Shown piece by piece: positions 32,005 to 59,270 of a DNA stretch of 64,000 nt. The notes beneath the pieces were generated by a model. That model was given only the letters and a program-made list of their open reading frames with translations. It was not told the origin of the DNA and did no database searches. The stretch lies in the IMG/VR virus record IMGVR_UViG_2541047680_000004; one strand, given 5' to 3'. The DNA is from a virus (lineage: Duplodnaviria; Heunggongvirae; Uroviricota; Caudoviricetes). Position 1 is the stretch's first letter. Each line of letters opens with the position of its first letter. Made by a program: the position numbers and the translations under genes.

Positions 32005-32020
32005 AAAACAACTTGTTTAC
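32005..32020. promoter_or_regulatory. family-1 operator-like dyad (AAAACAA-C-TTGTTT)
   Basis: matches dispersed consensus AGAAAACAAnTTGTTTTCT; upstream of terS. Confidence 0.45.
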
Positions 32021-32030
32021 TGCATCTGCT

Positions 32031-32049
32031 AACCAACTTGTTTTCTGGG
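32031..32049. promoter_or_regulatory. family-1 operator-like dyad
   Basis: AACCAACTTGTTTTCTGGG; second copy upstream of terS. Confidence 0.4.
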
Positions 32050-32080
32050 GTGTTTAATTAGGTCTGGCATGTCTTACGAA

Positions 32081-32136
32081 GCCTGCTTCCGTATATATTT
32101 AATAAGTTACTTATTATTTATATATACAGATGCAGG
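32081..32136. repeat. large AT-centred palindromic element, copy 1
   Basis: arms GCCTGCTTCCGTATAT / ATATACAGATGCAGG around a palindromic AT-rich centre; GGTCTGG 13 nt upstream; related copy at 61660-61716. Confidence 0.6.
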
Positions 32137-32160
32137 TCTTTAAATAAGCTCCCAGACCGA

Positions 32161-32427
32161 TTACATCACCAGTAACTTCGCTTTGGCTCGACCTAAAGTG
32201 GTTAACCCAAGAGTTCGGCGGTGATAGCGATTGTCACTGCGTTGGCGCGTATGCCCTTTCTCCACCAGCCCCTTTTTTATCAGAGCGCGAATTGAGAACT
32301 GGATACTTTGCTTGGTTGTCTTGTACGGCAAAACTTCAAGCAATTCGTCCAGGTCAAGTAGATGACCTCGCTCATAACCGAGATTGAGCGTTTTGATGAT
32401 GTCCTTTTGTTTATCGGTTAACGTCAT
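32161..32427 (-). CDS. small winged-helix-like DNA-binding protein (candidate)
   Basis: 88 aa; helix-turn-wing-like pattern TKQSIQFSIRALIKKGLVEK and basic C-terminus. Confidence 0.4.
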   Translation of the reverse strand: MTLTDKQKDIIKTLNLGYERGHLLDLDELLEVLPYKTTKQSIQFSIRALIKKGLVEKGHTRQRSDNRYHRRTLGLTTLGRAKAKLLVM

Positions 32428-32436
32428 GGCAAATCC

Positions 32437-33327
32437 TTATGCCGGTAAAGCAATTTCTAACGGTTTATCCAAAGGTTGTTTGTCGAATGCCAGCAGTGGC
32501 AGCGTGTCAGGCAGTCGACGGCCAAAGTCAGGGTTTCGGTACACACCATACAACGGAGACGTAAAGCTCAGGTTGTGAATGTCCTTGAGCAGCTTCACAA
32601 TGCTGGCCTCGTCCACCAGACTGTCGGCAATGTCCTGAATCGTCGTGCCACGATTCCGCCCAGCTTTTGCCAGGGAACTGTTCTTGTGGTAGTCCGCCAC
32701 CAGATCACGCAGTGCACGGCGACGACGAGACTCGCTCATTGCGAACAATTCTTTGACGATCGCCTCGTTATCACCCGGGTCGGAACGGAAATGGCGCTGG
32801 AATACACGCAGTGCACTTTCATAGCTCTTCGGTCGCTCAGGGCGGATGAACTTAAACCCTGCTTTCATGGCGAAGGGATTGTATTTGCTCATCGAGGACT
32901 GGATCTCAATGATTGGCCGGTCATGCATCCTGCTAACCAGGTTAATCATTCGATAAGAGACGCCTACGCCACGATACTGAGTATCCACAACTGAGCGACT
33001 GATCACCGCAAAGTTGTTATTCACGTACCGACCCCAGTACTGGTTAGCCACGGTGGTATTAGTGGTTGGTTTCAACTTAGGAAACATGCGGTGGCGAGGT
33101 GCCAGCAGTAGTTTCGGGTAAGCCATAACCACGACGCCCACCAGACGGTCATCAAGTTCGCAGCGATAGTAAGTTGGCGCGAAAGGTTTGCCGTCTGTTT
33201 TGTAGTGAAGCGACTTAAGAGCGTGCCAGTCCTCTACAGTTCCCTTTGTGACAGTCATTCGCTCCAGAAAGTCCAGATGACGCGGAAACTCTTCAGGGCG
33301 GTAGCGTTTAATGATGATGTCCGTCAT
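32437..33327 (-). CDS. GNAT-like acetyltransferase domain protein with C-terminal extension
   Basis: VVDTQYRGVGVSYRMI (R-x-x-G-x-G-like) and NPFAMKAGFKFI resemble GNAT motifs A and B; 296 aa. Confidence 0.45.
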   Translation of the reverse strand: MTDIIIKRYRPEEFPRHLDFLERMTVTKGTVEDWHALKSLHYKTDGKPFAPTYYRCELDDRLVGVVVMAYPKLLLAPRHRMFPKLKPTTNTTVANQYWGRYVNNNFAVISRSVVDTQYRGVGVSYRMINLVSRMHDRPIIEIQSSMSKYNPFAMKAGFKFIRPERPKSYESALRVFQRHFRSDPGDNEAIVKELFAMSESRRRRALRDLVADYHKNSSLAKAGRNRGTTIQDIADSLVDEASIVKLLKDIHNLSFTSPLYGVYRNPDFGRRLPDTLPLLAFDKQPLDKPLEIALPA

Positions 33328-33989
33328 AAATGAACCTCATCATGACTACCATTGTGATATTCCACCTTCACGCGTTCTTTGTAGTGCTTGGTGATCTGCA
33401 TATCCGGGCGCAGCGCGTTCTTCAGGTCTTCGTGAGTCGTCGCCACCATTACCGTCGCACCAACCTTTCGAGCGGCACGCTGGAGGTTAGATGCCACAAC
33501 CTGAGCGGTTACACGGTCTAGAACAGCACCGAACTCGTCAGCAGCCCACACTTTAGCGCCTGACTCAATCAGTTTGGCAATCTTGAGACGATATTTCTGA
33601 CCGTCTGACATTTCAGAAGGCTTGCGAACAAACAGATATGCATCGTTCAGACCAGCCATAGATAACAACCCAAGCGCATCGCTGGTCGTTTTGCCCAACT
33701 GATCGATGACGTTAACCTCATTATCGAAGGTAAAATCATCGATGGAGGCTACAGACAGCCCTTCATCCTTCATCTGTCGTTGCAACTCGCGCAGCACAAC
33801 GGATTTGCCGGAACCGGATTGGCCGGTGATGTACACCACATCGCCCTGCTTCACTTCCAGCTCCAGATTGTCGTAAAGCGTCCACTCTTTTTCGTCCAGG
33901 CCAAGCCCGAACGACTCAGCGATTTCCAACGTGCGCGTGGTTTTATTTACGCGTGTCTGAAACGATACGTTGATGATGTATTTGCTCAT
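33324..33989 (-). CDS. small ABC-type ATPase
   Basis: Walker A GQSGSGKS, signature-like MSDGQKYRL, Walker B VWAADEF, H-loop TTHE; 221 aa, no transmembrane partner adjacent. Confidence 0.8.
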   Translation of the reverse strand: MSKYIINVSFQTRVNKTTRTLEIAESFGLGLDEKEWTLYDNLELEVKQGDVVYITGQSGSGKSVVLRELQRQMKDEGLSVASIDDFTFDNEVNVIDQLGKTTSDALGLLSMAGLNDAYLFVRKPSEMSDGQKYRLKIAKLIESGAKVWAADEFGAVLDRVTAQVVASNLQRAARKVGATVMVATTHEDLKNALRPDMQITKHYKERVKVEYHNGSHDEVHL

Positions 33990-34654
33990 ACAGCCATCTC
34001 CCCGGAAGAGATCTTCTCCGCATATGCCACAAATGCGTCTACCCCGCTTTCTCCCGTCATTTCTTCCATGTGGGCAAGCAAATCACCAACAACAATGGCA
34101 GAGCCAGCAGGAAGCGTTTTAAAGCCCAATACGTCGACAACACGTACTTCTTCCGCTGCAACTTCACGACTGATCTCGGTGTGTTCATCCTTCTGTCGTT
34201 TAGTTTCTTCGCCAAGATCGATAACTAGCGAGTCGGTGTCCATTTCTTCTGTCATGCTGCCAACGAGAACATTCAACTCACGCTCTTCAAAGCCGAAAAC
34301 CTCGATATCGTCCAGAACAAGCGACTCAAGCTCTTTCTGTAGCTTAATTGCATCGTAATCAATGCTGGCAAGTCGGTTATCTTCAAGGCGCTTCGCACGA
34401 ACCTCGTCATCACTGAGATCATCGCGAACAATAACCGGTACGCGCTCAAGTCCAGCAAAAATTGCAGCCTCACGGCGGCCGTGGCCAGTAATAATTACGT
34501 CGTTCTTATCGACCGTAATTGGCTGGTCAAATCCGCGCTTTTTAATGGCTGCGGCTAGATCTCGGATCTGCTGTTCATCATGCTTTTTGGCATTCATCTC
34601 ATAGGGAATAAGATCTGCCGGGTCGCGATATACGATTTCAAACTTTTTGGTCAT
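33986..34654 (-). CDS. ParB/Srx-like N-terminal domain protein
   Basis: motif ITGHGRREAA (GxxRxxA-type ParB box); start set at internal Met overlapping upstream stop. Confidence 0.7.
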   Translation of the reverse strand: MTKKFEIVYRDPADLIPYEMNAKKHDEQQIRDLAAAIKKRGFDQPITVDKNDVIITGHGRREAAIFAGLERVPVIVRDDLSDDEVRAKRLEDNRLASIDYDAIKLQKELESLVLDDIEVFGFEERELNVLVGSMTEEMDTDSLVIDLGEETKRQKDEHTEISREVAAEEVRVVDVLGFKTLPAGSAIVVGDLLAHMEEMTGESGVDAFVAYAEKISSGEMAV

Positions 34655-35334
34655 TACATACGCTCCTTGTAGTAGTCGACCAGCCACACCAGAGCCTCAC
34701 CAGCGTTCTCCATTTCATTACCGGTGTTAATAGCCTGCTCTTTGATGATGTTTTTTATGGTTTCTGCAACACGATCTGACGCATCGAAAGTTACTTTGAA
34801 GCGCATGGTCTGATGTTCCGCCCCCACACGTTCGGTTTTCTCTCGTTTGTCGGTATCGACAGGCTCATCACTACCACGAGACAACGCCTCCAGTGCTTCA
34901 AGGTCGATTGCCGCCTCTTTTGCTAAAACCATCGAGATTTCGTCGTCATACGGGGCGATTTCAGACAGTTGATAGTCAAGTTCTGACTGAATTTCTTCAA
35001 TGAAGCGTTGCAATGCGATTTGGTCGTCTTCACCGTATCGCTCGTTGTCCACCAGTGACATCTGTTTAGCTACGACATCGCTAATTTTGCCCACAGAAAG
35101 CACTGGAACCGTTGAAATTCCTTGCTCAATAGCGGCACGCCAGCGATGTTCGCCGCCGAGGATTTCAAAAAATCCATCTTCAAGTTCACGAGCCAAAATT
35201 GGCTTAAAAAAGCCCAATTTTTCGATAGAACCTTTCAGTTTTTCAAAATTCTGCGCACCAACCGAATTGGTGTTCCAGGTATTCGGGCGAAGGTTGGCAA
35301 CATCAACCTGCAAAATCGTGATTTTTACATCCAT
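34654..35334 (-). CDS. ParB/Srx-like N-terminal domain protein
   Basis: motif ILGGEHRWRAA; first gene of the minus-strand operon; start codon uncertain (ATG at 35334 or GTG at 35352). Confidence 0.7.
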   Translation of the reverse strand: MDVKITILQVDVANLRPNTWNTNSVGAQNFEKLKGSIEKLGFFKPILARELEDGFFEILGGEHRWRAAIEQGISTVPVLSVGKISDVVAKQMSLVDNERYGEDDQIALQRFIEEIQSELDYQLSEIAPYDDEISMVLAKEAAIDLEALEALSRGSDEPVDTDKREKTERVGAEHQTMRFKVTFDASDRVAETIKNIIKEQAINTGNEMENAGEALVWLVDYYKERM

Positions 35335-35352: not shown

Positions 35353-35370
35353 TAAGTAATCACTTACTTA
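35353..35370. promoter_or_regulatory. family-2 dyad TAAGTAA-TCAC-TTACTTA in divergent promoter region
   Basis: perfect 7-4-7 dyad between the ParB-like operon and the helicase operon. Confidence 0.35.
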
Positions 35371-35416: not shown

Positions 35417-36976
35417 ATGACTGTTCGGATTGTATCTAACGCAGTTAATGCGCTTATTTCTGGCGCAGATGACAAGGTAAAGCAACTGGTGCAACAGATG
35501 TTGAGCTACGAAGTCGAGACTGGCGACTGGAAGGGCACAAGCACAATGTTCAACTGGAGTAAAAACTCGTTCCCTGCAGGCTTTGCCAAGCCTGTAGCGG
35601 CGAACTTGAACAAGGCGGGCATCAAATGTGTTCATATCCGCAAAGACAAAGCCCCGGCGCTTGGAAAACCAAATCCGGCGGTTAACCCATTCCCATACAA
35701 TCCTGATTATGCGTATCAGGATCAGACTGTGGAAACACTGGTTCGAGAGGGAATGATGATTGCGCAGATCGCTACTGGTGGCGGGAAATCTAACGTTGCC
35801 TGCAAAGCAGCTGCACGTATCGGTCGAATGACATTATTTTTAACAACCCGCTCTGTTCTGATGTTTCAAATGGCCGAAAACTTCCAGAGATCCATCGACT
35901 ACCGCGCCGAAAATGGCGAACCGTGGTTAAAAGACCAAAAGGTTGGAGTCATTGGCTCGGGTGAGTTCCAGGTATCACGACATATCAACGTCGCTACAGT
36001 TCAAACTCTTGCAAGTTTCCTCGAAGAACCACCACGCGATGCAACACCAGATAAGAAAAGCTACCACCTCAAACGTCGGGAGTTGGTGAAACGCTTCCTT
36101 TCAAGTGTCTCTCTTCTTATTCTGGAAGAGGCGCATGAGTCTTCAGGCTCAAATTTCTATGACATCGCCAGATTATGTGTGAACGCAGACTATCGTCTGG
36201 CGCTTACAGCCACGCCGTTCATGAAGGATTCGACGGAAGCCAACATGCGCCTGATGGCGGTGGCCGGGCGAATTGAAATTAAAGTCACAGAAAAGTACCT
36301 GATTGATCGAGGCATTCTGGCAAAGCCGTACTTCCTTTATCATAAAGTTGCCTACAAGCCAGACGAGGCCAGAATCAAGGCCGAACTTGCCAACAAACAC
36401 CTCAATTTTAGAGTTGGTATGAGCACCGCCTACCAAAAGGCTTATCAGTTGGGGATCGTGTATAATTTGGGACGTAACGAGGCCATTGTTCGCGAAGCAT
36501 TGCTCTATAAGCAACATTCTCTCAATTGTATGACTCTGGTTCGTCTTAAACGCCACGGGCAAATCCTGATGGAAATGATGAAAGAGTCCGGCCTTAGAGT
36601 TGACTTCATCTATGGGGAATCTAACCAGGCGACAAGGCAAGCAAAGCTGAACAGTTTAGCGTCTGGAGAAATAGATGTTTTAATAGGCTCGACTATTCTG
36701 GATGTCGGTGTTGATGTGCCAAGCGTTGGTGCGGTCATTCTTGCTGGTGGTGGGAAAGCAGAAGTTGAAATGAGGCAGCGTGTCGGTCGTGGCTTACGAG
36801 CAAAAAAAAATCAGGCAAACGTGTGTTTTATCACTGATTTCATTGACATTAGCAACAAATACCTGTTGTCTCACTCTTATGAGCGAAAACACATCATCGA
36901 CACCACACCTGGCTTTGCAGAAGGTGTATTGCCTATTGATGGAGCATTCGATTTTGGAGTTCTGAAACGAGATTAG
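35417..36976 (+). CDS. superfamily-2 DEAD/DEAH-type helicase
   Basis: motif I ATGGGKS, motif II ILEEAHE, motif III TATP, motif VI QRVGRGLR; about 100-aa N-terminal extension. Confidence 0.85.
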   Translation: MTVRIVSNAVNALISGADDKVKQLVQQMLSYEVETGDWKGTSTMFNWSKNSFPAGFAKPVAANLNKAGIKCVHIRKDKAPALGKPNPAVNPFPYNPDYAYQDQTVETLVREGMMIAQIATGGGKSNVACKAAARIGRMTLFLTTRSVLMFQMAENFQRSIDYRAENGEPWLKDQKVGVIGSGEFQVSRHINVATVQTLASFLEEPPRDATPDKKSYHLKRRELVKRFLSSVSLLILEEAHESSGSNFYDIARLCVNADYRLALTATPFMKDSTEANMRLMAVAGRIEIKVTEKYLIDRGILAKPYFLYHKVAYKPDEARIKAELANKHLNFRVGMSTAYQKAYQLGIVYNLGRNEAIVREALLYKQHSLNCMTLVRLKRHGQILMEMMKESGLRVDFIYGESNQATRQAKLNSLASGEIDVLIGSTILDVGVDVPSVGAVILAGGGKAEVEMRQRVGRGLRAKKNQANVCFITDFIDISNKYLLSHSYERKHIIDTTPGFAEGVLPIDGAFDFGVLKRD

Positions 36977-36978
36977 TT

Positions 36979-37257
36979 ATGAGTGAAAAGAAAACAACTT
37001 ACTGTCAGGTAGCATTGTCTGATAAGGCCAATGACAAACTTGGAAAGTTTCAAGTGAAACTAAAAGAAAAAAATATCAAAATGTCTAAGGCTGAAGTCAT
37101 AAATACCATTCTGGAACAATTGACAATGGCCGACTTTGACAAGGTTATATCTTCTGTCGGGGCTTCCGCTAAGACTCGTGAGAAAATCATGCGTATCTAT
37201 GAGAACTCTAATATGACAAAGGAAGATCTCGAAACGCTATTAAGCAGATTAAAATAA
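36979..37257 (+). CDS. hypothetical small protein
   Basis: 92-aa ORF tightly following the helicase gene. Confidence 0.35.
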   Translation: MSEKKTTYCQVALSDKANDKLGKFQVKLKEKNIKMSKAEVINTILEQLTMADFDKVISSVGASAKTREKIMRIYENSNMTKEDLETLLSRLK

Positions 37258-37325
37258 TCACGCTATCAATTAGGGAGACAAAGATGAAGTCTCCCATACT
37301 GTTCACTTTCTGTTCTAAAACTATC

Positions 37326-37748
37326 ATGAAATACTCGCTTCTCCCTCTACTAACGTTACCAGTGTTGATGCTTACCGCGTGCCAATCACGCCCAATATCA
37401 ATCCATGACGCCAAACCAGCACCGCAGGCCAAAGTGTTCAAGTATCAAAGCGCAGCGCCAGCTACGTTGGTGGTAATGAGAGACACAGGTTTTGTAGGAG
37501 CTGGATGTGATGCTTCCATTTTCATCAACGGCGAAACTGTCGCAAAACTGGCTACAGGCGAAAAAGCGACTTTCCATTTAAATGCCGGAGAATTAATTGT
37601 GGGTGCATCTCTTGAAGGTGCAGGTTTATGTGCTCTAAACCCCGCTCGTCAAGAGCGAGAAACGACTCTGAAGAATGGAGACACAAAAGCGTTCAGGGTG
37701 TTCACCAGCAATTCTGGTGACATCGACATTCTGCCAACAACTCTGTGA
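37326..37748 (+). CDS. lipoprotein
   Basis: signal peptide MKYSLLPLLTLPVLMLTAC with lipobox LTAC; start set at MKYSL. Confidence 0.5.
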   Translation: MKYSLLPLLTLPVLMLTACQSRPISIHDAKPAPQAKVFKYQSAAPATLVVMRDTGFVGAGCDASIFINGETVAKLATGEKATFHLNAGELIVGASLEGAGLCALNPARQERETTLKNGDTKAFRVFTSNSGDIDILPTTL

Positions 37749-37752
37749 TGAC

Positions 37753-38277
37753 ATGACAACCAAAGATATTACCTACGGTATCCAAGCTGAACTCTGGCCG
37801 CGAGATTACACTAACGTTGAAAAACTACTGATGTTCTGGCGCAGAGAACAAATTCCTGTAAGGGTCACTCTCGAAGATGGCCAGGCGTTTTGCATGTACG
37901 TTTATGGCCTCATGCCATCTCGTAACAAAGTTGACCTTTGCCCAGCCCCTTTTGACAAAGAAAATCGTATAAGGCTCCCACTTGAACGCATTAGTACAAT
38001 TGAATCAGGTGTGGTTGACAGTATCGCTCACGATTTCAAAGGTCGACTAACAGTTCACCCTGATTATGTCGATAATCGGCCATCACGCCGCGATTTTTTT
38101 GCAATTTGCAACCAAGCCTACAAAGCAAACAAATCTATAAGGGTGTACATGGCGGATGGCCGTGAAATTGAGGGGGTGTCAGCAGGCGCAGATGCTTGTC
38201 AGGTTACACTACGTGTCGAGAACGGTAGAAAAATAGTTGTTTTGTTCGATTGGGTTGAACGAATTTTGCCTTTTTGA
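37753..38277 (+). CDS. hypothetical protein
   Basis: 174 aa from MTTKDITYG; no motif recognised. Confidence 0.45.
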   Translation: MTTKDITYGIQAELWPRDYTNVEKLLMFWRREQIPVRVTLEDGQAFCMYVYGLMPSRNKVDLCPAPFDKENRIRLPLERISTIESGVVDSIAHDFKGRLTVHPDYVDNRPSRRDFFAICNQAYKANKSIRVYMADGREIEGVSAGADACQVTLRVENGRKIVVLFDWVERILPF

Positions 38278-38280
38278 GTT

Positions 38281-38589
38281 ATGAAATCGATATTGTTACC
38301 ACCATTATTTTTACTTTGCTCAGTTGCGGCAAATGCAATGGACTATAAGCCTGTCATTCAGTCGCTGATGAATGACGTGTGCTCAACGTCTCAGAATGTA
38401 TCAGTTTGCATGTATCAATTTTCGGCAGCCGTAAAAGCAGGAAAAGCGATAGGTGAGAATGTGGAACTGTGTAAGAAAGTGGCAAATGAAGAACGGGCAA
38501 TGTTGGATTGCGAATCTAGCGAGTCATCGGCACAGTTCGTTGATGCGCTATTTGACACCAATCGTAAGGCTGTAGAGTCTGTTCAATAA
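38281..38589 (+). CDS. small secreted protein
   Basis: signal peptide MKSILLPPLFLLCSVAANA; several Cys in mature part. Confidence 0.45.
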   Translation: MKSILLPPLFLLCSVAANAMDYKPVIQSLMNDVCSTSQNVSVCMYQFSAAVKAGKAIGENVELCKKVANEERAMLDCESSESSAQFVDALFDTNRKAVESVQ

Positions 38590-38604
38590 ATCTATAAGGT
38601 TAAT

Positions 38605-39793: not shown

Positions 39794-40024
39794 ATGTTTG
39801 TTCTTATCGCTGGCGTTAACGTCCATAATGAATATTATGTTAATCGCATCGCTGGGATCGCTGGTTACGCTGGGCGCGCAGTCGAGCTTATAGATGAAAC
39901 GACGCGCAAAATTGACTTATTGAGCGACCAGGAGCGAAAAAAAGCAGACGTGAACGACGCTGATATATTTTTAATGTTAAAAGCGTTTGTAGAAATGGGA
40001 TTTGAAATCAGTCTACATAAATAA
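39794..40024 (+). CDS. hypothetical small protein (moron gene 3)
   Basis: 76-aa ORF with RBS-like AAGGAG upstream. Confidence 0.4.
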   Translation: MFVLIAGVNVHNEYYVNRIAGIAGYAGRAVELIDETTRKIDLLSDQERKKADVNDADIFLMLKAFVEMGFEISLHK

Positions 40025-40029
40025 AATCG

Positions 40030-40054
40030 AGCGCCCACTATGGGCGCTTTTTTC
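40030..40054 (+). terminator. rho-independent terminator
   Basis: stem GCGCCC/GGGCGC, loop ACTAT, then TTTTTT. Confidence 0.65.
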
Positions 40055-40075
40055 GTTTCCAATACTCCCACCAAA

Positions 40076-50725: not shown

Positions 50726-51358
50726 CTACATACTTTCTGATCTAATTGAGTTGTTCACTGCTCTGGCAATTTTCTCCCGCAATTGCTGCGTTCCGTGGTA
50801 CTGAACCGCAATATCCCGCAACTCATTCACCAGTTCTCTAATCTGGTGATCTTTAAGCTCATTATTTGGGTGATGGGCAACAACTCTGGTTAATTCACCC
50901 TTGTCTTTTGCTCTTACGTATGCAGCTCTTGTGCATTCGACCCATGTATTACCGCCTACATTAACTTCGTAGATTAGGCTGGACTTATCTGTCAATTCGG
51001 AACAAATACGGGCCGTGGTCTGGCAACTAGAGCATTCGCAGTTATCGCGGAAACCGTGATCTACCGGTCGAGAAAGAGGTTTAACTTTTTCATCCAACTT
51101 CATCACAGCATCGTGATAAGCGTTCCAGCCGTCATCTTTACCAAGTTGATAAATCTCTGAAGGCTCCATGTAGTCTATATCGCAACCTTCTTCATCTGAT
51201 CTATCTGGTCGTTTCCCTGGTAATCGTTCATAAAAACGATTTCTGTCTCGACGTTCGGCTCTCAGTGCTAACGCAAGAAGTTGCTCAAGCGAGGTATTTG
51301 CACCAGCAATAATTTCATTGAGAATATCTTCTGTGAGATCTTTCGCTACCGTGCTCAT
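50726..51358 (-). CDS. hypothetical protein
   Basis: 210-aa ORF with Cys cluster CECSSCQ. Confidence 0.4.
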   Translation of the reverse strand: MSTVAKDLTEDILNEIIAGANTSLEQLLALALRAERRDRNRFYERLPGKRPDRSDEEGCDIDYMEPSEIYQLGKDDGWNAYHDAVMKLDEKVKPLSRPVDHGFRDNCECSSCQTTARICSELTDKSSLIYEVNVGGNTWVECTRAAYVRAKDKGELTRVVAHHPNNELKDHQIRELVNELRDIAVQYHGTQQLREKIARAVNNSIRSESM

Positions 51359-51942
51359 TTATCTCTCTCAGTATGTTGCGATGGCGTAAATTTGACGACA
51401 TCAAATATTTTGGATGGCATCAACTTTATCCGCGAGCTTAGTTCGGCTCTTCTCTGTAATGCGGTTAATAATGTTTTCGTTCTGACGCCTTCGTGTATCC
51501 TCATCCCTGGCACAAGGACTACATCGCAGGGGAGATGCTCAGGTGACAAATCATTTTGGGCATCACCAATAAGTTGTGTAATCTCTCTTTCAAGCCGACC
51601 GCCTAACTCCGTTTTAGTGCAATGTTCTGACCAATCGCCAGCCTCAAGAAGCGCGAGAATGTTTAAAATATCGTCCACAAGAGCAGTAGTGTCGCCGATG
51701 ACAGGAAAGGGATCGGCATAAAGCGCGACAATATCCCCAATCGTTTTTTGTTCCGCATCCTCAATATCTAAATATGCCGGAGTCGAAACAATTGCCGGAT
51801 CGGCCAAATCATCTTTCATTACAAACGCAGATGGCTTTTGTTCAGACAAGGCCAGTAACACATTCGCCATACGATGTGCGATGTGCTTTTTTCCGTAATC
51901 CTTTGTTGCCTGTGTTAGTTCTTCTTTTGTCATTTCAATCAT
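51355..51942 (-). CDS. hypothetical protein
   Basis: 195-aa ORF, ATGA overlap with neighbour. Confidence 0.4.
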   Translation of the reverse strand: MIEMTKEELTQATKDYGKKHIAHRMANVLLALSEQKPSAFVMKDDLADPAIVSTPAYLDIEDAEQKTIGDIVALYADPFPVIGDTTALVDDILNILALLEAGDWSEHCTKTELGGRLEREITQLIGDAQNDLSPEHLPCDVVLVPGMRIHEGVRTKTLLTALQRRAELSSRIKLMPSKIFDVVKFTPSQHTERDK

Positions 51943-52475
51943 CGTAAGGCATCCTCCACACTTAGCAGTCCGTTCCGCAAAAGATAATCCATCGCCCTAT
52001 CCGGTAATTTGCAATCAGGTTTTGCTTTTTTCAGTTGGCTGACCAATTGTTTAACCAGCATTGTTAATTCGATAACCTGGTAGCGCGGCAATGGTGAATT
52101 ATCGGCTTTACCCTGGATGACTGAACGTCCTTTCTCCTCCTTCGACGGTTCTGGCTGCGCCATGTAAAGCGGGGCAACATGTGCGACAGAACCGAGTGAC
52201 TCATGTATCCGAACCCATGTATCTTTCTCTGCACAGTCACGGTAAATAATAGAGACTGATTCCTGATCGTTTTTTGTGAGTGTTACCAGCCACGCCACTG
52301 GCTCTGCCTCCAGTGAGGTCAGTGCAATTCGAGCCAGTTTTAGATCTCGTTCAACCATCTCATGAACAACTTTGCAGTCCGCTCCTTCTTTACTAACACG
52401 TCCTTTCAAGTCTTCCAGATAACTAACGCTTTCGCGTGCATGGGAGATTAACTGTTCTTTGGTAAAGGTGGTCAT
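51939..52475 (-). CDS. hypothetical protein
   Basis: 178-aa ORF in coupled gene string. Confidence 0.4.
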   Translation of the reverse strand: MTTFTKEQLISHARESVSYLEDLKGRVSKEGADCKVVHEMVERDLKLARIALTSLEAEPVAWLVTLTKNDQESVSIIYRDCAEKDTWVRIHESLGSVAHVAPLYMAQPEPSKEEKGRSVIQGKADNSPLPRYQVIELTMLVKQLVSQLKKAKPDCKLPDRAMDYLLRNGLLSVEDALR

Positions 52476-52663
52476 TAGGTAGCTCTCTCAACAACAAGCA
52501 ATTCGTCGTAGTCATAATCAGTTTCGGAACCATCCGTACCGAACAGAGTCACTTTTTCACCGTTCATCCAGAAAGATTTAACCGCACATCGTTTGCCTTT
52601 AGATGTTATGACCACATCACCTGGGGTTACATCTTCAGCGCGAACTTCTACTGTTCTCATCAT
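52475..52663 (-). CDS. hypothetical small protein
   Basis: short ORF from MMRTVEV; start uncertain. Confidence 0.3.
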   Translation of the reverse strand: MMRTVEVRAEDVTPGDVVITSKGKRCAVKSFWMNGEKVTLFGTDGSETDYDYDELLVVERAT

Positions 52664-53201
52664 GCTGACCCTCTTTGGTGAAAACGCCTGATGCAATACT
52701 GTTTATGATGCTGTCAGTACAGGGAGTAGAAAGCTGGGCATCTCCAGCTATTTTCATGACTTCGACATCCGCATATCGAATACCGAGGTGTATCAGACCT
52801 GCTATACCTGACTTAAGTCGAACATTTTCCATAAACAGATCCTTTTCCCGCTGTTTAACGGTCTCCAGCTCAACACGCAGTTTCTCAAGCGTTAGGGCCA
52901 TCTCTACGTTCTCCTGCTCAAGACGTCGGATGTGTTGCTGTCTTTTATCCAGTTCGTCCAGCAGTGCAATCACATCGGGATCACTATCATCAACTACTGT
53001 TACGCGTGATTTTTCATAATGTTCGTCTGCAAAAGTACGCCCTATCTTAAAATATCCGTCATCACCCTCACCGGAACAGGCATAAACAACATGTGCTCCA
53101 GATATGCGCTGTATTGACATTTCCTCGCCACAAACAGAGCATTTAGGCGCTGGTTTTGGTGAATAACGTTCACGTAACGTCAGGTAGTAAATCTCATTCA
53201 C
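52635..53201 (-). CDS. zinc-ribbon plus coiled-coil protein
   Basis: CSVCGEE..YACSGEG Cys pairs; central coiled-coil-like segment. Confidence 0.4.
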   Translation of the reverse strand: MNEIYYLTLRERYSPKPAPKCSVCGEEMSIQRISGAHVVYACSGEGDDGYFKIGRTFADEHYEKSRVTVVDDSDPDVIALLDELDKRQQHIRRLEQENVEMALTLEKLRVELETVKQREKDLFMENVRLKSGIAGLIHLGIRYADVEVMKIAGDAQLSTPCTDSIINSIASGVFTKEGQHDENSRSSR

Positions 53202-53653
53202 TGTTTAGCTCCTGTACGAAGCTCAGCGGCAAAAGCTACTGCGTGATCATGATGTTCAAGTGTGTATGCGCACTCAGCAAACATCTCCACGCCCTGCGCA
53301 CGTACTTCAGCCAGAAAAGCATCGGTTGCTGGAGTCTCCGTTAATTCGCTAACCCAATTATCTCCGTGTTCCTCGGCACACATCGCATCGAATGCTCGCT
53401 CAGATTCTTTCAGGGCTGCATTCTCCGCCGCTAATGCGTCTCTCTGCGCCCGCAACTTCTCAATTTCGGCAGCCATGTAGTAACCAACCATAGCGAAAGT
53501 GGCGAAAGGGTAGTCCGAATCATCAGGAGATACGGAGGCCATTAGCAGACCATCGTGCATGTTCTGGCTTCCATCAGTGATGGATACCGCATAAGAATCG
53601 CTGGTTTCCCGTTTATACAATACGACGACCGGGTTCTTGATTTTCTCTCTCAT
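53198..53653 (-). CDS. hypothetical protein
   Basis: 151-aa ORF. Confidence 0.4.
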   Translation of the reverse strand: MREKIKNPVVVLYKRETSDSYAVSITDGSQNMHDGLLMASVSPDDSDYPFATFAMVGYYMAAEIEKLRAQRDALAAENAALKESERAFDAMCAEEHGDNWVSELTETPATDAFLAEVRAQGVEMFAECAYTLEHHDHAVAFAAELRTGAKQ

Positions 53654-54207
53654 TACGATGCCTCTAACTTGTCTAACTCTTTCAGCCCTTCACGTACCGC
53701 GTTCACAATGCGTTCCAGATACTGGTATTTCGGGTTTGGTATCGTTGGCCAGTCGGCATACCACGGATCATCACCAAATAGATTCAGCAGTTTGTTACCG
53801 ATGCCGAGACAACAGCAGCTTTCTTTGACATCATCTGCGTTTTCCGCCTCGACCCACATTTCGCGAGCCTGTACAGCATCGATTTCTCTCTCTCTTCGTA
53901 ACTTTATGATTTCTGACTTCACGAAAAGCAGATTTGCATCGTTGTCATCGTCGACCGTGCTTAGCAGTTGAGGGTCGAAATTGTCGATTAGATAGTCGTT
54001 GCTAACTCGCTTGATGAACGTCTGCACATCATCACCGCCCATAGCAAACCAAGCCGCAGTCCACGCTTTTCCGTAGCAGGTGATGGTGATTCTTCCCTTA
54101 CCAGGTTCGTAGTTTTCAATCATCACTCGAACCGGATCGAGGCGTTCCAGATCCGTCAGCACAAAGGAAAGAACATCTATTTTTTCGACCTTCATGCAGC
54201 CTCCCAC
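53653..54207 (-). CDS. hypothetical protein
   Basis: 184-aa ORF. Confidence 0.4.
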   Translation of the reverse strand: MGGCMKVEKIDVLSFVLTDLERLDPVRVMIENYEPGKGRITITCYGKAWTAAWFAMGGDDVQTFIKRVSNDYLIDNFDPQLLSTVDDDNDANLLFVKSEIIKLRREREIDAVQAREMWVEAENADDVKESCCCLGIGNKLLNLFGDDPWYADWPTIPNPKYQYLERIVNAVREGLKELDKLEAS

Positions 54208-54833
54208 GCGCTCCAGATCAGCGATTTGTGTTTTTCATAACGTTTGATGTGTACCGGTTTCAGAAGCGCAATACCTTCTGTCACTTTCGCCATTGCGCTT
54301 AATAGCAACGGGTGTTCTATACCTACCCTCTCCATGTACTCGACAACATCAGCATTGGCACCAATCTCTTTGCCGTTAAAGAGTACGTCCAGCATCAGTT
54401 CTTTCTCTGCAAGGTAGATAGCTGAAAACTCAGGATCGCGACTCACGATAGAAGAGGTATTGTCCAGCAGGTCAGCCAGCTTGATCATGCGCGTCTGCAT
54501 GTTGAGATTTTGCTCCAGCTCCCGGACATTGATGATGAAACGCTGTATTCGATTGCCGTCTTCTGGCCTTGCAATGTTGGTCAGAGCCAGAACCATTTCA
54601 GCTACGCGCTCACCGAAGTGATCACGAACCATCTCTATGGTTACATTTGTGTCTTCGACCACATCATGCAGAAGCGCCGCGATCTGCATCTCCACGGTTC
54701 CGTCATGCAATGCAACGATCTCTCGGACAGCAACCGGATGATTTATATAATCTTCACCTGTATATTTTCTTTTCTGACCAACGCCACCATGAGCGCCAGC
54801 GGCGAACATATGTGCTTCGGAAATACTAGACAT
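54192..54833 (-). CDS. SpoT/RelA-like HD-domain hydrolase (small alarmone hydrolase candidate)
   Basis: YINHPVAV and AALLHDVVEDT match the (p)ppGpp-hydrolase HD signature; 213 aa, no synthetase domain. Confidence 0.75.
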   Translation of the reverse strand: MSSISEAHMFAAGAHGGVGQKRKYTGEDYINHPVAVREIVALHDGTVEMQIAALLHDVVEDTNVTIEMVRDHFGERVAEMVLALTNIARPEDGNRIQRFIINVRELEQNLNMQTRMIKLADLLDNTSSIVSRDPEFSAIYLAEKELMLDVLFNGKEIGANADVVEYMERVGIEHPLLLSAMAKVTEGIALLKPVHIKRYEKHKSLIWSAWEAA

Positions 54834-54842
54834 TCTTAACTC

Positions 54843-54905
54843 CGTTGTTTTCTAGTTGTGGTTATTTTCACAAATAAGAAAAGGCAGAAAACAATTTATT
54901 TAAGG
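54843..54905. promoter_or_regulatory. composite family-1 operator pair upstream of HD-hydrolase gene
   Basis: TTGTTTTCT half-site plus AAGGCAGAAAACAATTTATTT. Confidence 0.5.
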
Positions 54906-54952
54906 CCATAAGTTATGGCCTTTATTTATTCATGCAGAAGGATTTGTAGCGC

Positions 54953-55333
54953 CTAATTGCCGGATAAAATGGGTTGAGGTGCTTGCCAGTAAGCTCCACC
55001 GTCCCATGTGAACCCCATGCGAATAAGAGTGTTTATTGCGGCTTTGGTAGACTCCGATTCGACACTGGCTTTTCGAAACTCTTGAACCTCTTTCGCCAAC
55101 TTGTATGTAATTGTGCAGGGGACGATTGCAGCCCAGCCTTTCTCATGACTGTTAATGACCATCTGGATGTGACCATCCAGAATAGGTTGATCAGGCATGT
55201 TATTGAAAACGTCTGCCTGTTTTTGAATATGAAGAAAAAGCCTTGCCAGCTCCATTTGCTCACTACGAGACAAGGGATTATCAAGAGGGTTTTTTGCAAA
55301 AGCGGCTATACGCTGTGCGTCAATGCCAAACAT
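54953..55333 (-). CDS. hypothetical protein
   Basis: 126-aa ORF. Confidence 0.35.
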   Translation of the reverse strand: MFGIDAQRIAAFAKNPLDNPLSRSEQMELARLFLHIQKQADVFNNMPDQPILDGHIQMVINSHEKGWAAIVPCTITYKLAKEVQEFRKASVESESTKAAINTLIRMGFTWDGGAYWQAPQPILSGN

Positions 55334-56037
55334 CAGCGCACCTCACCATCTTTATGGCTGGAGTTAACTTCCGCCATTAAATGTCTGACGTAATCGACAA
55401 GAGAGCCACCTGGTGGAATCTGGCATTCCTCAACTAACTGGAAGTAGATATCCGCAGCATTACGTGTATTGCTACCCGCGCATATTCTTTCTTCCCGAAG
55501 TGCATGAAGCTCGTTGATCAAACGGTCACACTCTCCGTTACGCTGATCCACAACAGCCTCAAGCTCTGCGACGCGTTCACCTGGCGTCTTACCTTCTTTG
55601 CGTTGGATGGTAACGACGAAATCGCCAATTGCAGGGACGTTGTAATCCAGCTCAAGGTAGTTTTTGGCACCGCTGCGGACGAACTCACCCGCGAACATGG
55701 TGGCGAACATCGCAGAGGCCACTTCGCCGTTGAAAAGTGACTCCAGATCTAACGGAGTCCCGGCAGCAAGAGCCTCTTTTGCTGTATCCATTGCATCCAT
55801 GAACCGATCAAACTCATTAGCGCGCTTTTCCAGGTCTTTCCATTGCTCGCTCCAACGTTTGGCAACGAAGTCTATGAATGTTTTCGCGGATTCATCAAAA
55901 TCCCCCTCAAACTTAACGATGCCTTTATCAATAATGATCTGGCCTACCGCATCCTCTGCATAACCTTTCAATGTAAACTTGAAAGAAAAATCAGAACGGC
56001 CTGTGACGTTAAAATGCTCTAACTGGAGGTTGCTCAT
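55333..56037 (-). CDS. hypothetical protein
   Basis: 234-aa ORF. Confidence 0.4.
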   Translation of the reverse strand: MSNLQLEHFNVTGRSDFSFKFTLKGYAEDAVGQIIIDKGIVKFEGDFDESAKTFIDFVAKRWSEQWKDLEKRANEFDRFMDAMDTAKEALAAGTPLDLESLFNGEVASAMFATMFAGEFVRSGAKNYLELDYNVPAIGDFVVTIQRKEGKTPGERVAELEAVVDQRNGECDRLINELHALREERICAGSNTRNAADIYFQLVEECQIPPGGSLVDYVRHLMAEVNSSHKDGEVR

Positions 56038-56082
56038 GTGTTTTTCTCTTCTCGTTTAGTTACTACATTCTTACACAAATTA

Positions 56083-56100
56083 AGTAAGTATTTACCTATC
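56083..56100. promoter_or_regulatory. family-2 dyad-like motif
   Basis: AGTAAGTATTTACCTATC. Confidence 0.3.
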
Positions 56101-57784
56101 ATTTAACGCGTTTGAAAACGTATACGCTGACTGTGATCCCGGTATCTTCAAACTCGTTGGTAAACGACTTCCCTCTGGCATAAACGTAATTATCCATCGT
56201 CATCCAGTCCAGTATTGGCGCAGTGCCCGGCAATACTGCTACAAGACGCCCGCCGACTTTCAGATGCCCCAGCGCAGCCATCGTGTGCTCTCTATGACGA
56301 CCAAGCGAGTACGGCGGGTTCATAACGATTTTGTCGAACTGATAACCTGCGTTGTTCTCAGACCACTTTATGAAGTCGCAGCAAATCGTGTTCGTATACC
56401 CTTTTCCACGCAGGATATCAGCGAAGAGAGGTGCGATTTCTATGCAGGTAACATCTTCCAGATCGGCGTTAATATAGGCCAGAAGATCCCCACGTCCGGC
56501 TTGAGGCTCCAGCAGCTTCTCACCAGGCTTCAATTCAGTGGCTCTGGCAACGTACTCAGCAATCAAGCGTGGGGTAGGGTAGAACTGGTGTGATTTTGTA
56601 TCCGGTATTAATCCGGTAGCCACAATCGTATTTAGCGTATGGCCGATCTCATACGGGAACTGCCAGTGCTTTTTCTCCTGCACGCCGCCAATGAAGCTCA
56701 GTGTGCGCTCAAGCTCTTCCACCTGCGACTTCTGGAGAGCTGAATCAGAGAAGTACCATACGCCTTTGTCTTTGCTCAATCGCCCGTCACGAAGCGCAGT
56801 GCGAACCGGCACGGAGATCGTCTTCTGGATTAAACCGAACTGCTTTGGTGCCCGTGTTTTTGGCGCAGTTCGGCATGGCGCGGGGATTGCAGCAGGCATA
56901 CTGTAAGCCAGCACCTCATTCAACTTCCAGGCCACGTCAGGATGTATTTCAAAGTGAACGTTGCCGTTCTTGAACATCTTCACGCGCATCAGATTTCCAT
57001 CGACGTTCATCCAGTCACCGGTCTGGCAGTCGTTTGCCCTATACGCAGCTGATAGCACCTCAGCAGTGCGGTTGATGGTAATAAATTCTTTGTGCGCGAA
57101 GAAATGAAGCAAGACACGCAGATCGTCGATGTAGTCCTCTTTGCGATAGTTCACGCTAACGCTGTCCCGCCAGAAATCAGAAATGCAGTCAGCGATTATC
57201 AGACGCTCGCTGAAACCGTTTGTCTTATTTGTCTTGTGCGCAGGACTCAGCGCCTTAAACAAGCCATACACGCGCTCAGAGAGATATTTGTGCCTGTCAT
57301 TCAGCAAATTAAGCATCGTGGGTATGACCGTTTCTGCTTTGAACTCCGGTACACCAACGAACTCTTTAACCTTCATCTGGTAGCCTGTTCTGTCAGTTTT
57401 GATGACTTCCTGTTTGCCCTCTATAAACTGCTCGCGCCACTCATCTCGACGGGAAGCTGGCATGATCAGCAAAACGTTAGTCATGTCCGTGACCTTCCTC
57501 CAGTACTCGGCCCAAATATTCTGTTTCACCCATTCCAGATCGACTTTATCCAACCAACCTCGATTTAAACGCGAGCGATCTTCATCTGGTCGATGGTTTA
57601 GTCTCAGCAGGCGATTAATCATGTTGTGGCGTTCGTCGCCATAAACGAAGTCGTGTACCTGATACATGAAGGCGATCTCTTTCTCGCACTCGGCCACGAT
57701 TTCGTGGATGACATTCATTTCCTGACGATAGTCGATAGCCGTGTTTGAGCTGGCATCGTCGATGATAGAAAGGGCTGTATTCAT
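56099..57784 (-). CDS. N6-adenine DNA methyltransferase with large N-terminal domain of unknown function
   Basis: C-terminal motifs FYPTP, LEPQAGRGDLL (SAM-binding-like) and NPPY; about 370-aa N-terminal region without recognised motif. Confidence 0.75.
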   Translation of the reverse strand: MNTALSIIDDASSNTAIDYRQEMNVIHEIVAECEKEIAFMYQVHDFVYGDERHNMINRLLRLNHRPDEDRSRLNRGWLDKVDLEWVKQNIWAEYWRKVTDMTNVLLIMPASRRDEWREQFIEGKQEVIKTDRTGYQMKVKEFVGVPEFKAETVIPTMLNLLNDRHKYLSERVYGLFKALSPAHKTNKTNGFSERLIIADCISDFWRDSVSVNYRKEDYIDDLRVLLHFFAHKEFITINRTAEVLSAAYRANDCQTGDWMNVDGNLMRVKMFKNGNVHFEIHPDVAWKLNEVLAYSMPAAIPAPCRTAPKTRAPKQFGLIQKTISVPVRTALRDGRLSKDKGVWYFSDSALQKSQVEELERTLSFIGGVQEKKHWQFPYEIGHTLNTIVATGLIPDTKSHQFYPTPRLIAEYVARATELKPGEKLLEPQAGRGDLLAYINADLEDVTCIEIAPLFADILRGKGYTNTICCDFIKWSENNAGYQFDKIVMNPPYSLGRHREHTMAALGHLKVGGRLVAVLPGTAPILDWMTMDNYVYARGKSFTNEFEDTGITVSVYVFKRVK

Positions 57785-57796
57785 AATTACACCATT

Positions 57797-57830
57797 AAAT
57801 AATTTGTTTTCTGATTGGTGTAATTATCGC
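57797..57830. promoter_or_regulatory. family-1 operator/promoter element
   Basis: AAATAATTTGTTTTCTGATTGGTGTAATTATCGC. Confidence 0.5.
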
Positions 57831-57925
57831 AAACTTGAAAAGGCATAAAAGCTGCATTCATAGGCGTTACAGCAGATTTAAGGCGTAAAAATGGGGGCTT
57901 TCGCCCCCTGTCGACTGGTGCAGTA

Positions 57926-58492
57926 TTAGAGTGCGTATTGCGTTTTGTGCGGCTGCTTATTCAAGTCATGGCGATGCGTGAGCTCCCGCATCATGTCTTC
58001 AAGGCGACTCTTTGTGTCGTCGAGCTGGTCGGCCATTGCACCTAAAAGCTGGCGAACGGCCATCGGATCGTCGCTGTTTAGTGATGGCATTTTATAACCT
58101 GCTTTAGAAGATATAAGGTTAATTGCAGACATCAACATCGTTAGAGAGGATTTAAGCCCGGCAATTTCACGATCTTTGCTGGCAATAATCGTCTCACTTT
58201 TATTACCGTCATGAGATCCTTGAGTCTCGCTCACCATATCCAAAGTCGCTTGCAACTTATCAGCTCTCTCTTTTTCAGCAAGATAATGAACACCGAAATG
58301 ATGTGCTAAAGCTACAATCTGAGTTGGCTCTTCAAAGGTGGACTCAAAATTAAGTGCTGTAACCACTCTCTCAAATATGGAAACGTCTTCTATTCCTCGA
58401 AGAATGGCTAACATTTTGACCAGTTCATTAGCATCCATTTCTTCGAATAAGGCGTTTTGTTCATCAGCTATCGCTTTGCATTTCTTGCACAT
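57926..58492 (-). CDS. hypothetical protein
   Basis: 188-aa ORF. Confidence 0.4.
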   Translation of the reverse strand: MCKKCKAIADEQNALFEEMDANELVKMLAILRGIEDVSIFERVVTALNFESTFEEPTQIVALAHHFGVHYLAEKERADKLQATLDMVSETQGSHDGNKSETIIASKDREIAGLKSSLTMLMSAINLISSKAGYKMPSLNSDDPMAVRQLLGAMADQLDDTKSRLEDMMRELTHRHDLNKQPHKTQYAL

Positions 58493-58510
58493 GTGTTTTT
58501 CCTAATGCTT

Positions 58511-58549
58511 AAACAAGTTGTTTTCTTATTGGCTTTATTGTGATGTGGC
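58511..58549. promoter_or_regulatory. family-1 operator/promoter element
   Basis: AAACAAGTTGTTTTCTTATTGGCTTTATTGTGATGTGGC. Confidence 0.5.
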
Positions 58550-58789
58550 ATAAAAGGGGAGCAAGCTAAACGTAAAGGTGCAAACTCTCTATTTCGGTCA
58601 ACGAAACACAAGGGCCATTTGGCCCTTGTCATTAGCACTTTGCTTTACGAACTAACGGATAAGCGAAGTAGATCGCCAAACCAATGAGGACGCCATCAGA
58701 AATGACAGACATCATCTTTCCCGTAAAATCCACCAACACCGCCATCACCAGAAGAGCAATGACGATCACAAGCCGGAATCTCTCAAGCA

Positions 58790-59215
58790 TTAGAGATAAG
58801 CATCCAGTGACAACTGAAGCGCCTGGGCGATCTTTTTCAGTGCCTGCTCTTCTTGTTCACCAATGCCGTCCTGATCGGCAATATCAAGGCACAGACACAG
58901 AACATCGACCGCCTCTGGAGTACCCGCAATATCAGACAGCTCACGAATAGCCTGTGCATTAGCAGAACGAGGGGACGCTTCGTAACGAGCACGGATATTG
59001 GCGCTCATTTGGGCAATTTCACCAGCAAACGGAGAAAACGCAGGCAGAGCTGCAATTGTCTTCTCAAGAATGGCAATTTCTTTTGCGTCACATGTGCCGT
59101 CGGCATAGGAGATCATGTACGCGCCCCACACGGTGGCCTCAACCGCATCACGGTTCTCCATTTTTTTGACTTCGATAACAGCTTTACGAGTTTTCTTTTT
59201 GAAGAAACCTAACAT
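58790..59215 (-). CDS. hypothetical protein (possible TerB-like fold)
   Basis: 141 aa; loose resemblance to TerB-type pattern (YADG..E..L); weak. Confidence 0.35.
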   Translation of the reverse strand: MLGFFKKKTRKAVIEVKKMENRDAVEATVWGAYMISYADGTCDAKEIAILEKTIAALPAFSPFAGEIAQMSANIRARYEASPRSANAQAIRELSDIAGTPEAVDVLCLCLDIADQDGIGEQEEQALKKIAQALQLSLDAYL

Positions 59216-59238
59216 GTGTTTTCCTTTTATTATTTGTC

Positions 59239-59270
59239 AAAACAAGTTGTTTTCTAATTACATAAATTGC
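59239..59270. promoter_or_regulatory. family-1 operator/promoter element
   Basis: AAAACAAGTTGTTTTCTAATTACATAAATTGC. Confidence 0.5.

Follow-up and report, generated by a model that had tools for sequence, protein, structure and literature searches.

The question raised by this locus is whether a short dyad-symmetric DNA motif, dispersed over many promoters of one mobile element, marks the binding sites of a single regulator. It was asked of a 64,000-nucleotide stretch of Caudoviricetes DNA (IMG/VR record IMGVR_UViG_2541047680_000004), hereafter the window, in which an initial annotation had described 13 or more copies of the motif, here called F1, ahead of terS and of small-gene transcription units on both sides of metG and mrp. 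Positions 40000–60000 are 96–97% identical to Escherichia phages CMS-2020a and Cyrano (= pLF82) and equally to ~108-kb E. coli plasmids such as pECAZ162_2, with SSU5 and Klebsiella relatives matching part of the region at 80–87% identity; because of the 96–97% matches, the window is assigned by sequence to an SSU5-like phage-plasmid, of which it is ~60%. As set out below, we consider it fairly probable, from the sequence evidence, that F1 is the operator of an element-wide regulon under one element-encoded repressor.

F1 Is Overrepresented and Confined to Promoter Regions

Exact copies of the left arm of the motif, AGAAAACAA, number 13 in the window where 1.23 would be expected, a count that none of 100 dinucleotide shuffles reaches. 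They are unevenly distributed: 12 fall in 31001–60000 and one at 1145, and the 31 kb of structural genes are otherwise free of them. For the 13-bp palindrome AAACAAnTTGTTT there are six occurrences, as opposed to not one in 30 dinucleotide shuffles. Of the individual hits, the one at 36989 lies inside a gene and is a chance occurrence, and those on the + strand at 41905, 46111 and 54886 are second, upstream copies placed over the −35 region of − strand promoters.

A 21-bp position-weight matrix (PWM) derived from 33 promoter sites in the window, in Cyrano and in SSU5 yielded the consensus yAAGAAAACAA-n-TTGTTTA, with AAACAAnTTGTTT as its symmetric core. Scanning with this matrix at a score of at least 12 revealed 18 distinct dyad centres in the window, one of which (5015–5035) falls within a coding region and is probably a chance match. 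The remaining 17 are credible F1 sites, 16 of them inside 32005–59270 (Table 1), which bears out the earlier count of 13 or more. The check proposed at that time was the density of the motif in unrelated E. coli sequence; whatever the threshold, 50 kb of the K-12 chromosome scanned with the same matrix contained no hit. All 17 sites are intergenic, in the same orientation as the next gene and 1–62 nt ahead of its ATG, and they flank metG and apbC/mrp on both sides, so the reported placement upstream of terS and the small-gene units also holds. Regarding the motif itself, the dyad symmetry stood and its full extent did not: the truly symmetric part is only 13 bp long, AGA on the left flank hardly varies, and the right arm mostly reads TTGTTTA rather than TTGTTTTCT.

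Promoter Anatomy and Spacing Rules

Upstream of the dyad lies a −10 box reading GATAAT, TATTAT or GAAAAT. The GATAAT-like box formerly taken as an extension of the motif is thus real, and it is the −10 hexamer, with its last base 20–21 bp upstream of the dyad centre. Across five genomes this distance was found in 28 of 56 promoter sites, and a TGn extended −10 in 21 of the same 56. Other distances comprise 10–12 bp (DnaB-like helicase), 17–18 bp (CYRAN_58), 22 bp (parA) and 23–24 bp (nrdB), and since four or five promoter geometries occur, the dyad is separable from the promoter. Taking transcription to start ~7 nt after the −10 box, the dyad would be centred near +13 and span about +4 to +23.

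At several promoters the −35 region is overlain by a second, inverted F1 copy, which follows immediately on the terminator of the gene before. The spacing between adjacent sites in the five genomes is exclusively 51 bp (eight cases) or 25 bp (six cases, at terS, nrdB and a non-coding region), which confirms the paired sites noticed at the outset. These parts recur as a module of ~70 bp composed of a terminator, an optional upstream dyad, cTTTTayGCCTTTT, TGnGATAAT, ACACCAA, the dyad and a Shine–Dalgarno sequence; phylogenetic footprinting of orthologous promoters added little, because the entire 70 bp is 71–79% conserved. A stem-loop at the 5′ end of the RNA was rejected, as 27-nt dyad segments have folding energies of 0 to −2.5 kcal/mol, indistinguishable from shuffles, and the aligned F1 sites contain no compensatory changes in variant arms. 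An exact reverse-complement arm that forms no hairpin, together with partner copies lying outside the F1 transcript at fixed helical spacing, argues for a symmetric protein that reads double-stranded DNA.

Conservation across Relatives and Silence in a Lysogen

The same F1 consensus was found in Cyrano, SSU5, Klebsiella phage pJN2-26, Yersinia pestis pMT1 and a divergent Klebsiella lineage (NZ_CP101792), whether the promoters are orthologous or not, with 12–23 dyads in promoter context in the scanned portion of each element. In Cyrano, sites outside the equivalent of the window are located at the helicase, cobT-like, CYRAN_58 and nrdB promoters. Among species-representative genomes, the extended motif was present in multiple copies solely on phage-plasmid-sized contigs of Kluyvera and Buttiauxella, the other matches being chance singletons. 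An IMG/VR scan with a 15-base pattern was little informative, returning mainly chance singletons and SSU5-like contigs of ~90–112 kb.

The activity of the F1 units was read from the published transcriptome of LF82 in overnight LB culture, which reports on Cyrano, a 96%-identical element, in the lysogenic state with a background (median) of 9.8 (PMC9928086, S1 table). In this lysogen 13 of 16 F1 units are silent, with readings of 5–13 for the first gene behind the promoter: terS 7.1, CYRAN_47 7.8, CYRAN_58 5.7, nrdB 12.9, CYRAN_85 7.0, CYRAN_87 7.1, CYRAN_93 6.3, CYRAN_101 7.5, CYRAN_103 5.0, CYRAN_105 12.8, CYRAN_106 12.2, CYRAN_108 5.7 and CYRAN_110 6.7 (PMC9928086). The three exceptions above background are the helicase (21), CYRAN_111 (25.5) and parA (50) (PMC9928086), and the parA operon is the sole one of them to encode a candidate binder. 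Ciprofloxacin induces Cyrano 39-fold. The lysogenic silence of the F1 units fits repression, and by itself is no proof of it because the −35 elements are weak.

A Probable Element-Wide Operator Regulon and Its Candidate Binder

What is directly observed is that the motif exists, is statistically enriched, follows rules of placement and spacing and is conserved, and that the units downstream are silent in the lysogen; from this we infer the binding of a protein, its repressive effect and its likely identity. A dimeric (or dimer-of-dimers) protein encoded by the phage-plasmid would bind the F1 dyad at roughly 17 promoters in the window and roughly 20–25 in the whole element. The second copy, whether over the −35 region at 51 bp or in tandem at 25 bp, would permit cooperative binding or looping, and the bound protein would block initiation or promoter escape. 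Individually terminated single-gene and short-operon units would thereby be kept off during plasmid maintenance, among them accessory genes, terS and the DnaB-like helicase, nrdB and cobT-like genes.

The statement that the cognate regulator is not identified in the window is probably wrong, given two plausible candidates, encoded at 75–434 and 32161–32427, both of which fit an invariant 19-bp site. The favoured one is a protein of 119 amino acids (aa) whose gene abuts parA, itself recognized by Pfam AAA_31, MipZ and CbiA matches. By position and sequence pattern it is ParG/omega-like, with a disordered basic N-terminus followed by helices. In an AlphaFold2 (AF2) monomer model with a mean predicted local distance difference test (pLDDT) score of 65, residues 1–47 are disordered, helices span 48–61 and 70–82 and two more follow; an SRTMS segment looks strand-like by eye. 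The protein is 92% identical in SSU5, 90% in pJN2-26 and 51% in the divergent Klebsiella lineage, and the segments RPQGRPTRGK (PVRPQGRPTRGK)..IKSRTMS.EDE and FTRSDVIRAAI are nearly invariant in relatives just 48–51% identical overall. The family is confined to SSU5-like elements; the sole match outside them, on a 262-kb plasmid, is an IS5-truncated remnant of a ParG-like gene.

In the Cyrano lysogen the gene for this protein is expressed (89 vs the background of 9.8; PMC9928086, S1 table). In all Enterobacteriaceae elements examined, a perfect F1 dyad stands at the promoter of the parA operon, and the site of the window recurs in Cyrano, in SSU5 and in the divergent Klebsiella lineage. Lysogenic expression and an autoregulatory logic are the reasons for favouring the ParG-like protein, which would bind the F1 site of its own promoter, thereby autoregulating parA, and may also use the dispersed sites as centromere-like anchors. 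We regard it as the preferred binder, albeit as a tentative choice with the balance of probability against it. That a partition adaptor encoded after parA doubles as a genome-wide phage silencer, with ~20 F1 dyads acting as operators and as a dispersed centromere at once, is a bolder and more doubtful proposal. A natural ParG-less case is provided by pMT1, which retains its F1 sites; its divergence was judged too recent for an informative test.

Several observations weigh against the operator reading or against this binder. The left arm AGAAAACAA is far better conserved than the right arm, and a distant Moellerella relative keeps the A-rich left arm (six copies) with the palindrome absent (0 copies). 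Because the left arm is retained there without the palindrome, the comparison suggests that it also has a promoter or leader role and that part of the motif is perhaps not for a dimeric binder. The −35 hexamers share just 2–3 of 6 positions with TTGACA, and most F1 promoters go undetected in a generic sigma-70 scan; with boxes this weak, silence might mean a missing activator rather than a repressor. As for the 119-aa protein, no match was obtained in Pfam, PDB sequences or Foldseek, leaving a ribbon-helix-helix (RHH) fold unconfirmed, and the single dyad upstream of parA is unusual for a type Ib centromere.

Alternative Binders and Alternative Readings

The second candidate is an 88-aa winged-helix protein encoded by the last gene of the ParB-like operon, which, if made in lytic growth alone, would bind F1 as a temporal switch that turns down or modulates early and accessory promoters and terS, instead of repressing them in the lysogen. 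Its DNA-binding fold is confident: the AF2 model has a pLDDT of 85–88 over residues 1–59, the best fold matches are the LexA N-terminal domain and the DtxR and BlaI winged helices, and there is a weak Pfam LexA_DNA_bind match. It is also the best conserved of the candidates (89% identity in SSU5, 84% in pJN2-26 and 78% in the divergent Klebsiella lineage; 77–89% across lineages), with an invariant recognition helix, and its gene ends ~110 bp upstream of the tandem F1 sites of terS. However, the gene stands at lysogen background (7.8) and cannot account for the silence of the F1 units there, its operon promoter has a palindrome of another family (family 2; 35353–35370) instead of F1, and the recognition helix is invariant in Moellerella too, where the F1 palindrome is lost. 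On balance, this assignment appears unlikely.

Family 2 is a second palindrome, TAAGTA-nn-TACTTA, extended as GATAAGTAnnTACTTATC. It precedes tail, head and other late operons and some early genes, occurs also in the divergent ParB/helicase promoter, and is often closely followed by a TAAGAAT or TATAAT −10 box. Cyrano, SSU5 and both Klebsiella lineages retain it, Moellerella does so more loosely, and the 50 kb of K-12 lack it. Its position resembles that of an activator box (cf. P1 late promoters), by analogy, and the 88-aa winged-helix protein is a candidate binder for it.

F1 could also be part of a mobile promoter-leader cassette with no protein operator involved, in which an A-rich and then U-rich initial transcribed sequence would aid initiation or translation and which would be copied between gene boundaries, promoting modular shuffling as the PeSL cassettes of T4-type phages do. 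The conservation of the ~70-bp module as a whole, the concentration of sites in the variable accessory region before small insulated genes, and the near-invariant left arm that persists without the palindrome in Moellerella all accord with such a cassette. Nevertheless, it assigns no role to the exact reverse-complement right arm; the RNA stem-loop does not form, the −35-region copies at the fixed 51-bp spacing fall outside the transcript, and the motif is found with several promoter geometries (helicase, parA, nrdB). We consider this explanation quite improbable, both as to the effect on initiation or translation and as to the copying between gene boundaries.

Far less credible is F1 as an RNA operator in the 5′ untranslated region, through which a FljA-family protein of 174 aa (37753–38277, +) would block translation and destabilize about 20 mRNAs. 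FljA acts in this manner on fliC mRNA, by translation block and destabilization. The protein has a full-length Pfam Flag1_repress match (E 2.5e-84) and a weak Hfq-like C-terminal match, its gene lies within the helicase operon, an operon expressed in lysogens, and F1 is predicted to be within the first ~20 nt of the transcripts, co-oriented with them. Yet the protein is unusually allelic, ranging from 52 to 98% identity among elements (83% in SSU5, 79% in pJN2-26) and falling to 36% in the divergent Klebsiella lineage with F1 unchanged. No FljA-family homologue was found in the Moellerella region searched and the E. coli fliC leader is without F1-like sequence; an RNA operator would also leave unexplained the palindromy and the −35 partner sites outside the transcript. 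Separately, all the Enterobacteriaceae SSU5-like elements examined, and pMT1 as well, have a FljA-family homologue, whose role could be repression of host flagellin or that of an immunity-type specificity factor.

A conserved Enterobacterales host DNA-binding protein exploited by the element is unlikely and is the least probable of the alternatives weighed here, since, for all that elements from Escherichia, Salmonella, Klebsiella and Yersinia have the identical motif while most element regulators diverge, the 50 kb of K-12 chromosome has no F1 site, the multi-copy contigs of the species-representative genomes are the phage-plasmid-sized ones of Kluyvera and Buttiauxella, and we know of no E. 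coli regulator with the F1 consensus.

Two further element-encoded candidates were rejected. CYRAN_45, a "putative repressor" with a helix-turn-helix encoded beside the integrase, is absent from SSU5, 56% identical in Klebsiella (pJN2-26) and has no F1 in its own intergenic region, and is unlikely. The same applies to an RHH-like 92-aa protein (36979–37257), which drops to 63% identity in SSU5, 52% in pJN2-26 and 35% in the divergent Klebsiella lineage while F1 is invariant. The two ParB_N proteins (33986–35334) are at lysogen background (5.0 and 9.5), unlike what a KorB-type repressor would call for.

Organization of the Window and Features near the F1 Sites

The coordinates of the sites, the candidate binders and the main gene blocks are collected in Table 1.

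Table 1. F1 sites, candidate binders, family 2 palindromes and gene blocks of the window
Feature	Position	Strand	Remarks
F1, parA promoter	1135–1155	−	TAAGAAAACAAGTTGTTTCAG; perfect 13-bp palindrome; 32 nt ahead of parA ATG; PWM score 29.2
F1, terS-proximal	32003–32023	−	Member of tandem pair, centres 25 bp apart; kept in Cyrano, SSU5 and pMT1
F1, terS-distal	32028–32048	−	CCAGAAAACAAGTTGGTTAGC; score 24.3
F1	41141–41161	−	17 nt before gene 40641–41123; preceded by TTGACG/GATAAT promoter boxes; aligns with orthologous promoters in SSU5, pJN2-26 and pMT1
F1, upstream type	41903–41925		In −35 region of promoter (TGTGAAAAT) of gene 41474–41884; directly after terminator hairpin; belongs to repeat family D5; scores 18.4 and 15.3
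F1	42808–42828	−	8 nt before gene 42488–42799; TGgTATTAT extended −10; score 28.2
F1	43293–43313	−	AGAAAACATgTTGTTTA; before gene 42954–~43270; TGcGATAAT extended −10; score 27.8
Weaker F1-like pair	44462–44505		Centres 25 bp apart; in CA-rich region free of coding sequence; scores 14.0 and 14.4
F1	44693–44713	−	Degenerate right arm AAGAAAACAActaaataac; head of CA-rich non-coding stretch; downstream sequence conserved in SSU5 and pJN2-26
F1	46060–46080	−	10 nt before gene 45750–46049, just downstream of metG; score 28.8
F1, upstream partner of 46060 site	46109–46129	+	Over −35 region; centres 51 bp apart
F1	54835–54855	−	1 nt before HD-domain gene 54192–54833, which heads an operon extending down to 50726; Shine–Dalgarno sequence replaces right arm
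F1, upstream partner of 54835 site	54884–54904	+	Centres 51 bp apart; abuts terminator hairpin
F1	57794–57814	−	9 nt before DUF4942 gene 56099–57784; TGcGATAAT extended −10; orthologous promoters align
F1, top-scoring	58508–58528	−	TAAGAAAACAACTTGTTTAAG; 15 nt before gene 57926–58492; score 32.3
F1	59237–59257	−	21 nt before tciA/TerB-like gene 58790–59215; score 26.3
Favoured candidate binder, 119 aa	75–434	−	ParG/omega-like; immediately after Walker-type ParA gene 434–1102
Rival candidate binder, 88 aa	32161–32427	−	Winged helix; last gene of ParB-like operon, just upstream of terS promoter
Family 2 sites	9665–9682, 16581–16594, 23064–23077, 28555–28572, 35353–35370, 42406–42419, 56081–56098, 60132–60149
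par and lysis genes	1–5000
Tail and head genes	5000–31300
terS	31333–31965
ParB-like operon	32161–35334
Helicase operon	35417–38600		Divergent from ParB-like operon
Accessory region	40600–63000		Small, mainly leftward genes; encloses metG and apbC/mrp
metG	46211–48310		Captured host gene
apbC/mrp	48402–49502		Captured host gene

Behind the F1 promoter at 44693–44713, a stretch of ~800 nt (~43950–44720, −) is devoid of coding sequence and is C/A-rich and G-poor. It contains three GCCATTACCCAA-type repeats (44096–44326) in addition to the internal F1-like pair, and conservation in SSU5 and pJN2-26 covers its first ~60 nt. The 1.6 kb of pECAZ162_2 that match this region have no annotated gene, and a search of the stretch against Rfam gave no match; a long non-coding RNA is one possibility and an iteron- or centromere-like region another. 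A repeat of ~36 nt (TTGTCGGTTGCCTGGAGGTAAGAGGTTGGTGTTTTT and variants) forms two tandem pairs, at 41236–41299 and 44380–44446, the first of which adjoins an open reading frame for a 47-aa basic protein (41328–41471) whose Cyrano counterpart has a lysogen expression of 58 (PMC9928086, S1 table).

The host-like metG–apbC segment (46211–49502) is sandwiched between F1 units, and in the Cyrano lysogen apbC is expressed (92) and metG is low (16) (PMC9928086, S1 table). A near-consensus LexA box, TGCTGTATATGCATACAGTA (49946–49965), lies just upstream of a UmuD/HumD-like S24 peptidase gene (49540–49929) whose counterpart is highly expressed in the same lysogen (148; PMC9928086, S1 table). At the right end of the window, an Rfam match to RNA-OUT, the IS10 antisense RNA (63830–63899, −, 98.8 bits), marks a copy of IS10.

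Comparison with Known Regulatory Systems

The initial annotation had likened the arrangement to many operators for one repressor, as in the C1 control of phage P1. The part concerning dispersed sites for one regulator is favoured by the symmetry, the promoter geometries, the spacing, the identity across genera and the lysogenic silence; the likeness to C1 is fair as regards mechanism, without membership of the C1 family. Both systems place one operator type at the promoters of many separate lytic and accessory units of a plasmid-prophage, with a DnaB-type helicase gene among the targets and some sites in pairs. The C1 operator of P1 is the asymmetric 17-mer ATTGCTCTAATAAATTT, whereas F1 is a symmetric dyad of 13–19 bp and unrelated sequence, in line with the earlier remark that the two differ, and F1 is also carried by terS and parA. 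The annotated relatives list no C1 homologue, in annotations to which no dedicated C1 search was added.

Omega of pSM19035 and ParG of TP228 are type Ib partition proteins that double as transcriptional repressors. The element resembles their systems in having a small gene directly behind that of a Walker-type ParA, a product with a flexible basic N-terminus, and an operator at the par promoter. Omega recognizes converging pairs of 7-bp units and its repression extends to several further promoters of the plasmid; the 6+1+6 layout of F1 puts its arms 7 bp apart, centre to centre, like the heptad pairs of omega. The differences are a fold unconfirmed here, a single dyad rather than an array at parA, the lack of any detected sequence similarity, and a regulon of about 20–25 phage-genome promoters, far above that of omega. 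The comparison is thus an analogy drawn from gene position, the par-promoter site and the 7-bp arm spacing rather than from any proven homology.

The KorB/KorA system of RK2 likewise combines 13-bp palindromic operators at about a dozen promoters, at variable promoter distances, with partition and global repression, but KorB is a ParB-family helix-turn-helix protein with the operator TTTAGCSGCTAAA, and the ParB-like genes of the present element are at lysogen background. The stoperators bound by gp71 of mycobacteriophage L5 are similar in that dozens of site copies sit in narrow gaps between genes, all pointing the same way with respect to transcription; they are asymmetric and mostly outside promoters, unlike F1, which is symmetric and always in promoter context. 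PeSL cassettes of T4-type phages share the repeated promoter-leader module before small genes in a plastic region and differ by their stem-loop, as F1 has no stable one and has partner copies outside the transcript. Functionally, the F1 system is of the P1 C1, RK2 Kor and pSM19035 omega kind, and by sequence it is a member of none of them. In the literature searched, the motif sequence appears in no paper and nothing relevant was found on the regulation of SSU5 or pHCM2 or on lysis-lysogeny control in SSU5-like phage-plasmids; a 2026 phage-plasmid preprint concerns another family.

Implications for SSU5-Like Phage-Plasmids

SSU5-like phage-plasmids are common, with about 800 plasmids in PLSDB carrying the par or FljA-like genes of the backbone, and they are found in E. 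coli, Klebsiella, Enterobacter, Salmonella (pHCM2) and Yersinia pestis (pMT1). With about 20 copies per genome, a conserved operator of 19 bp would offer a direct experimental handle on this family: used as bait, F1 may yield the master regulator, reporters may reveal the lysogenic state, and the list of sites predicts which accessory genes are switched together. Jointly, F1 and the family 2 palindromes outline what may be a two-class promoter code for the entire element. Should the partition adaptor encoded after parA indeed be the protein that reads F1 and silences the phage genes, there would be a mechanical link between segregation, copy number and prophage silencing across a widespread family of Enterobacterales phage-plasmids.

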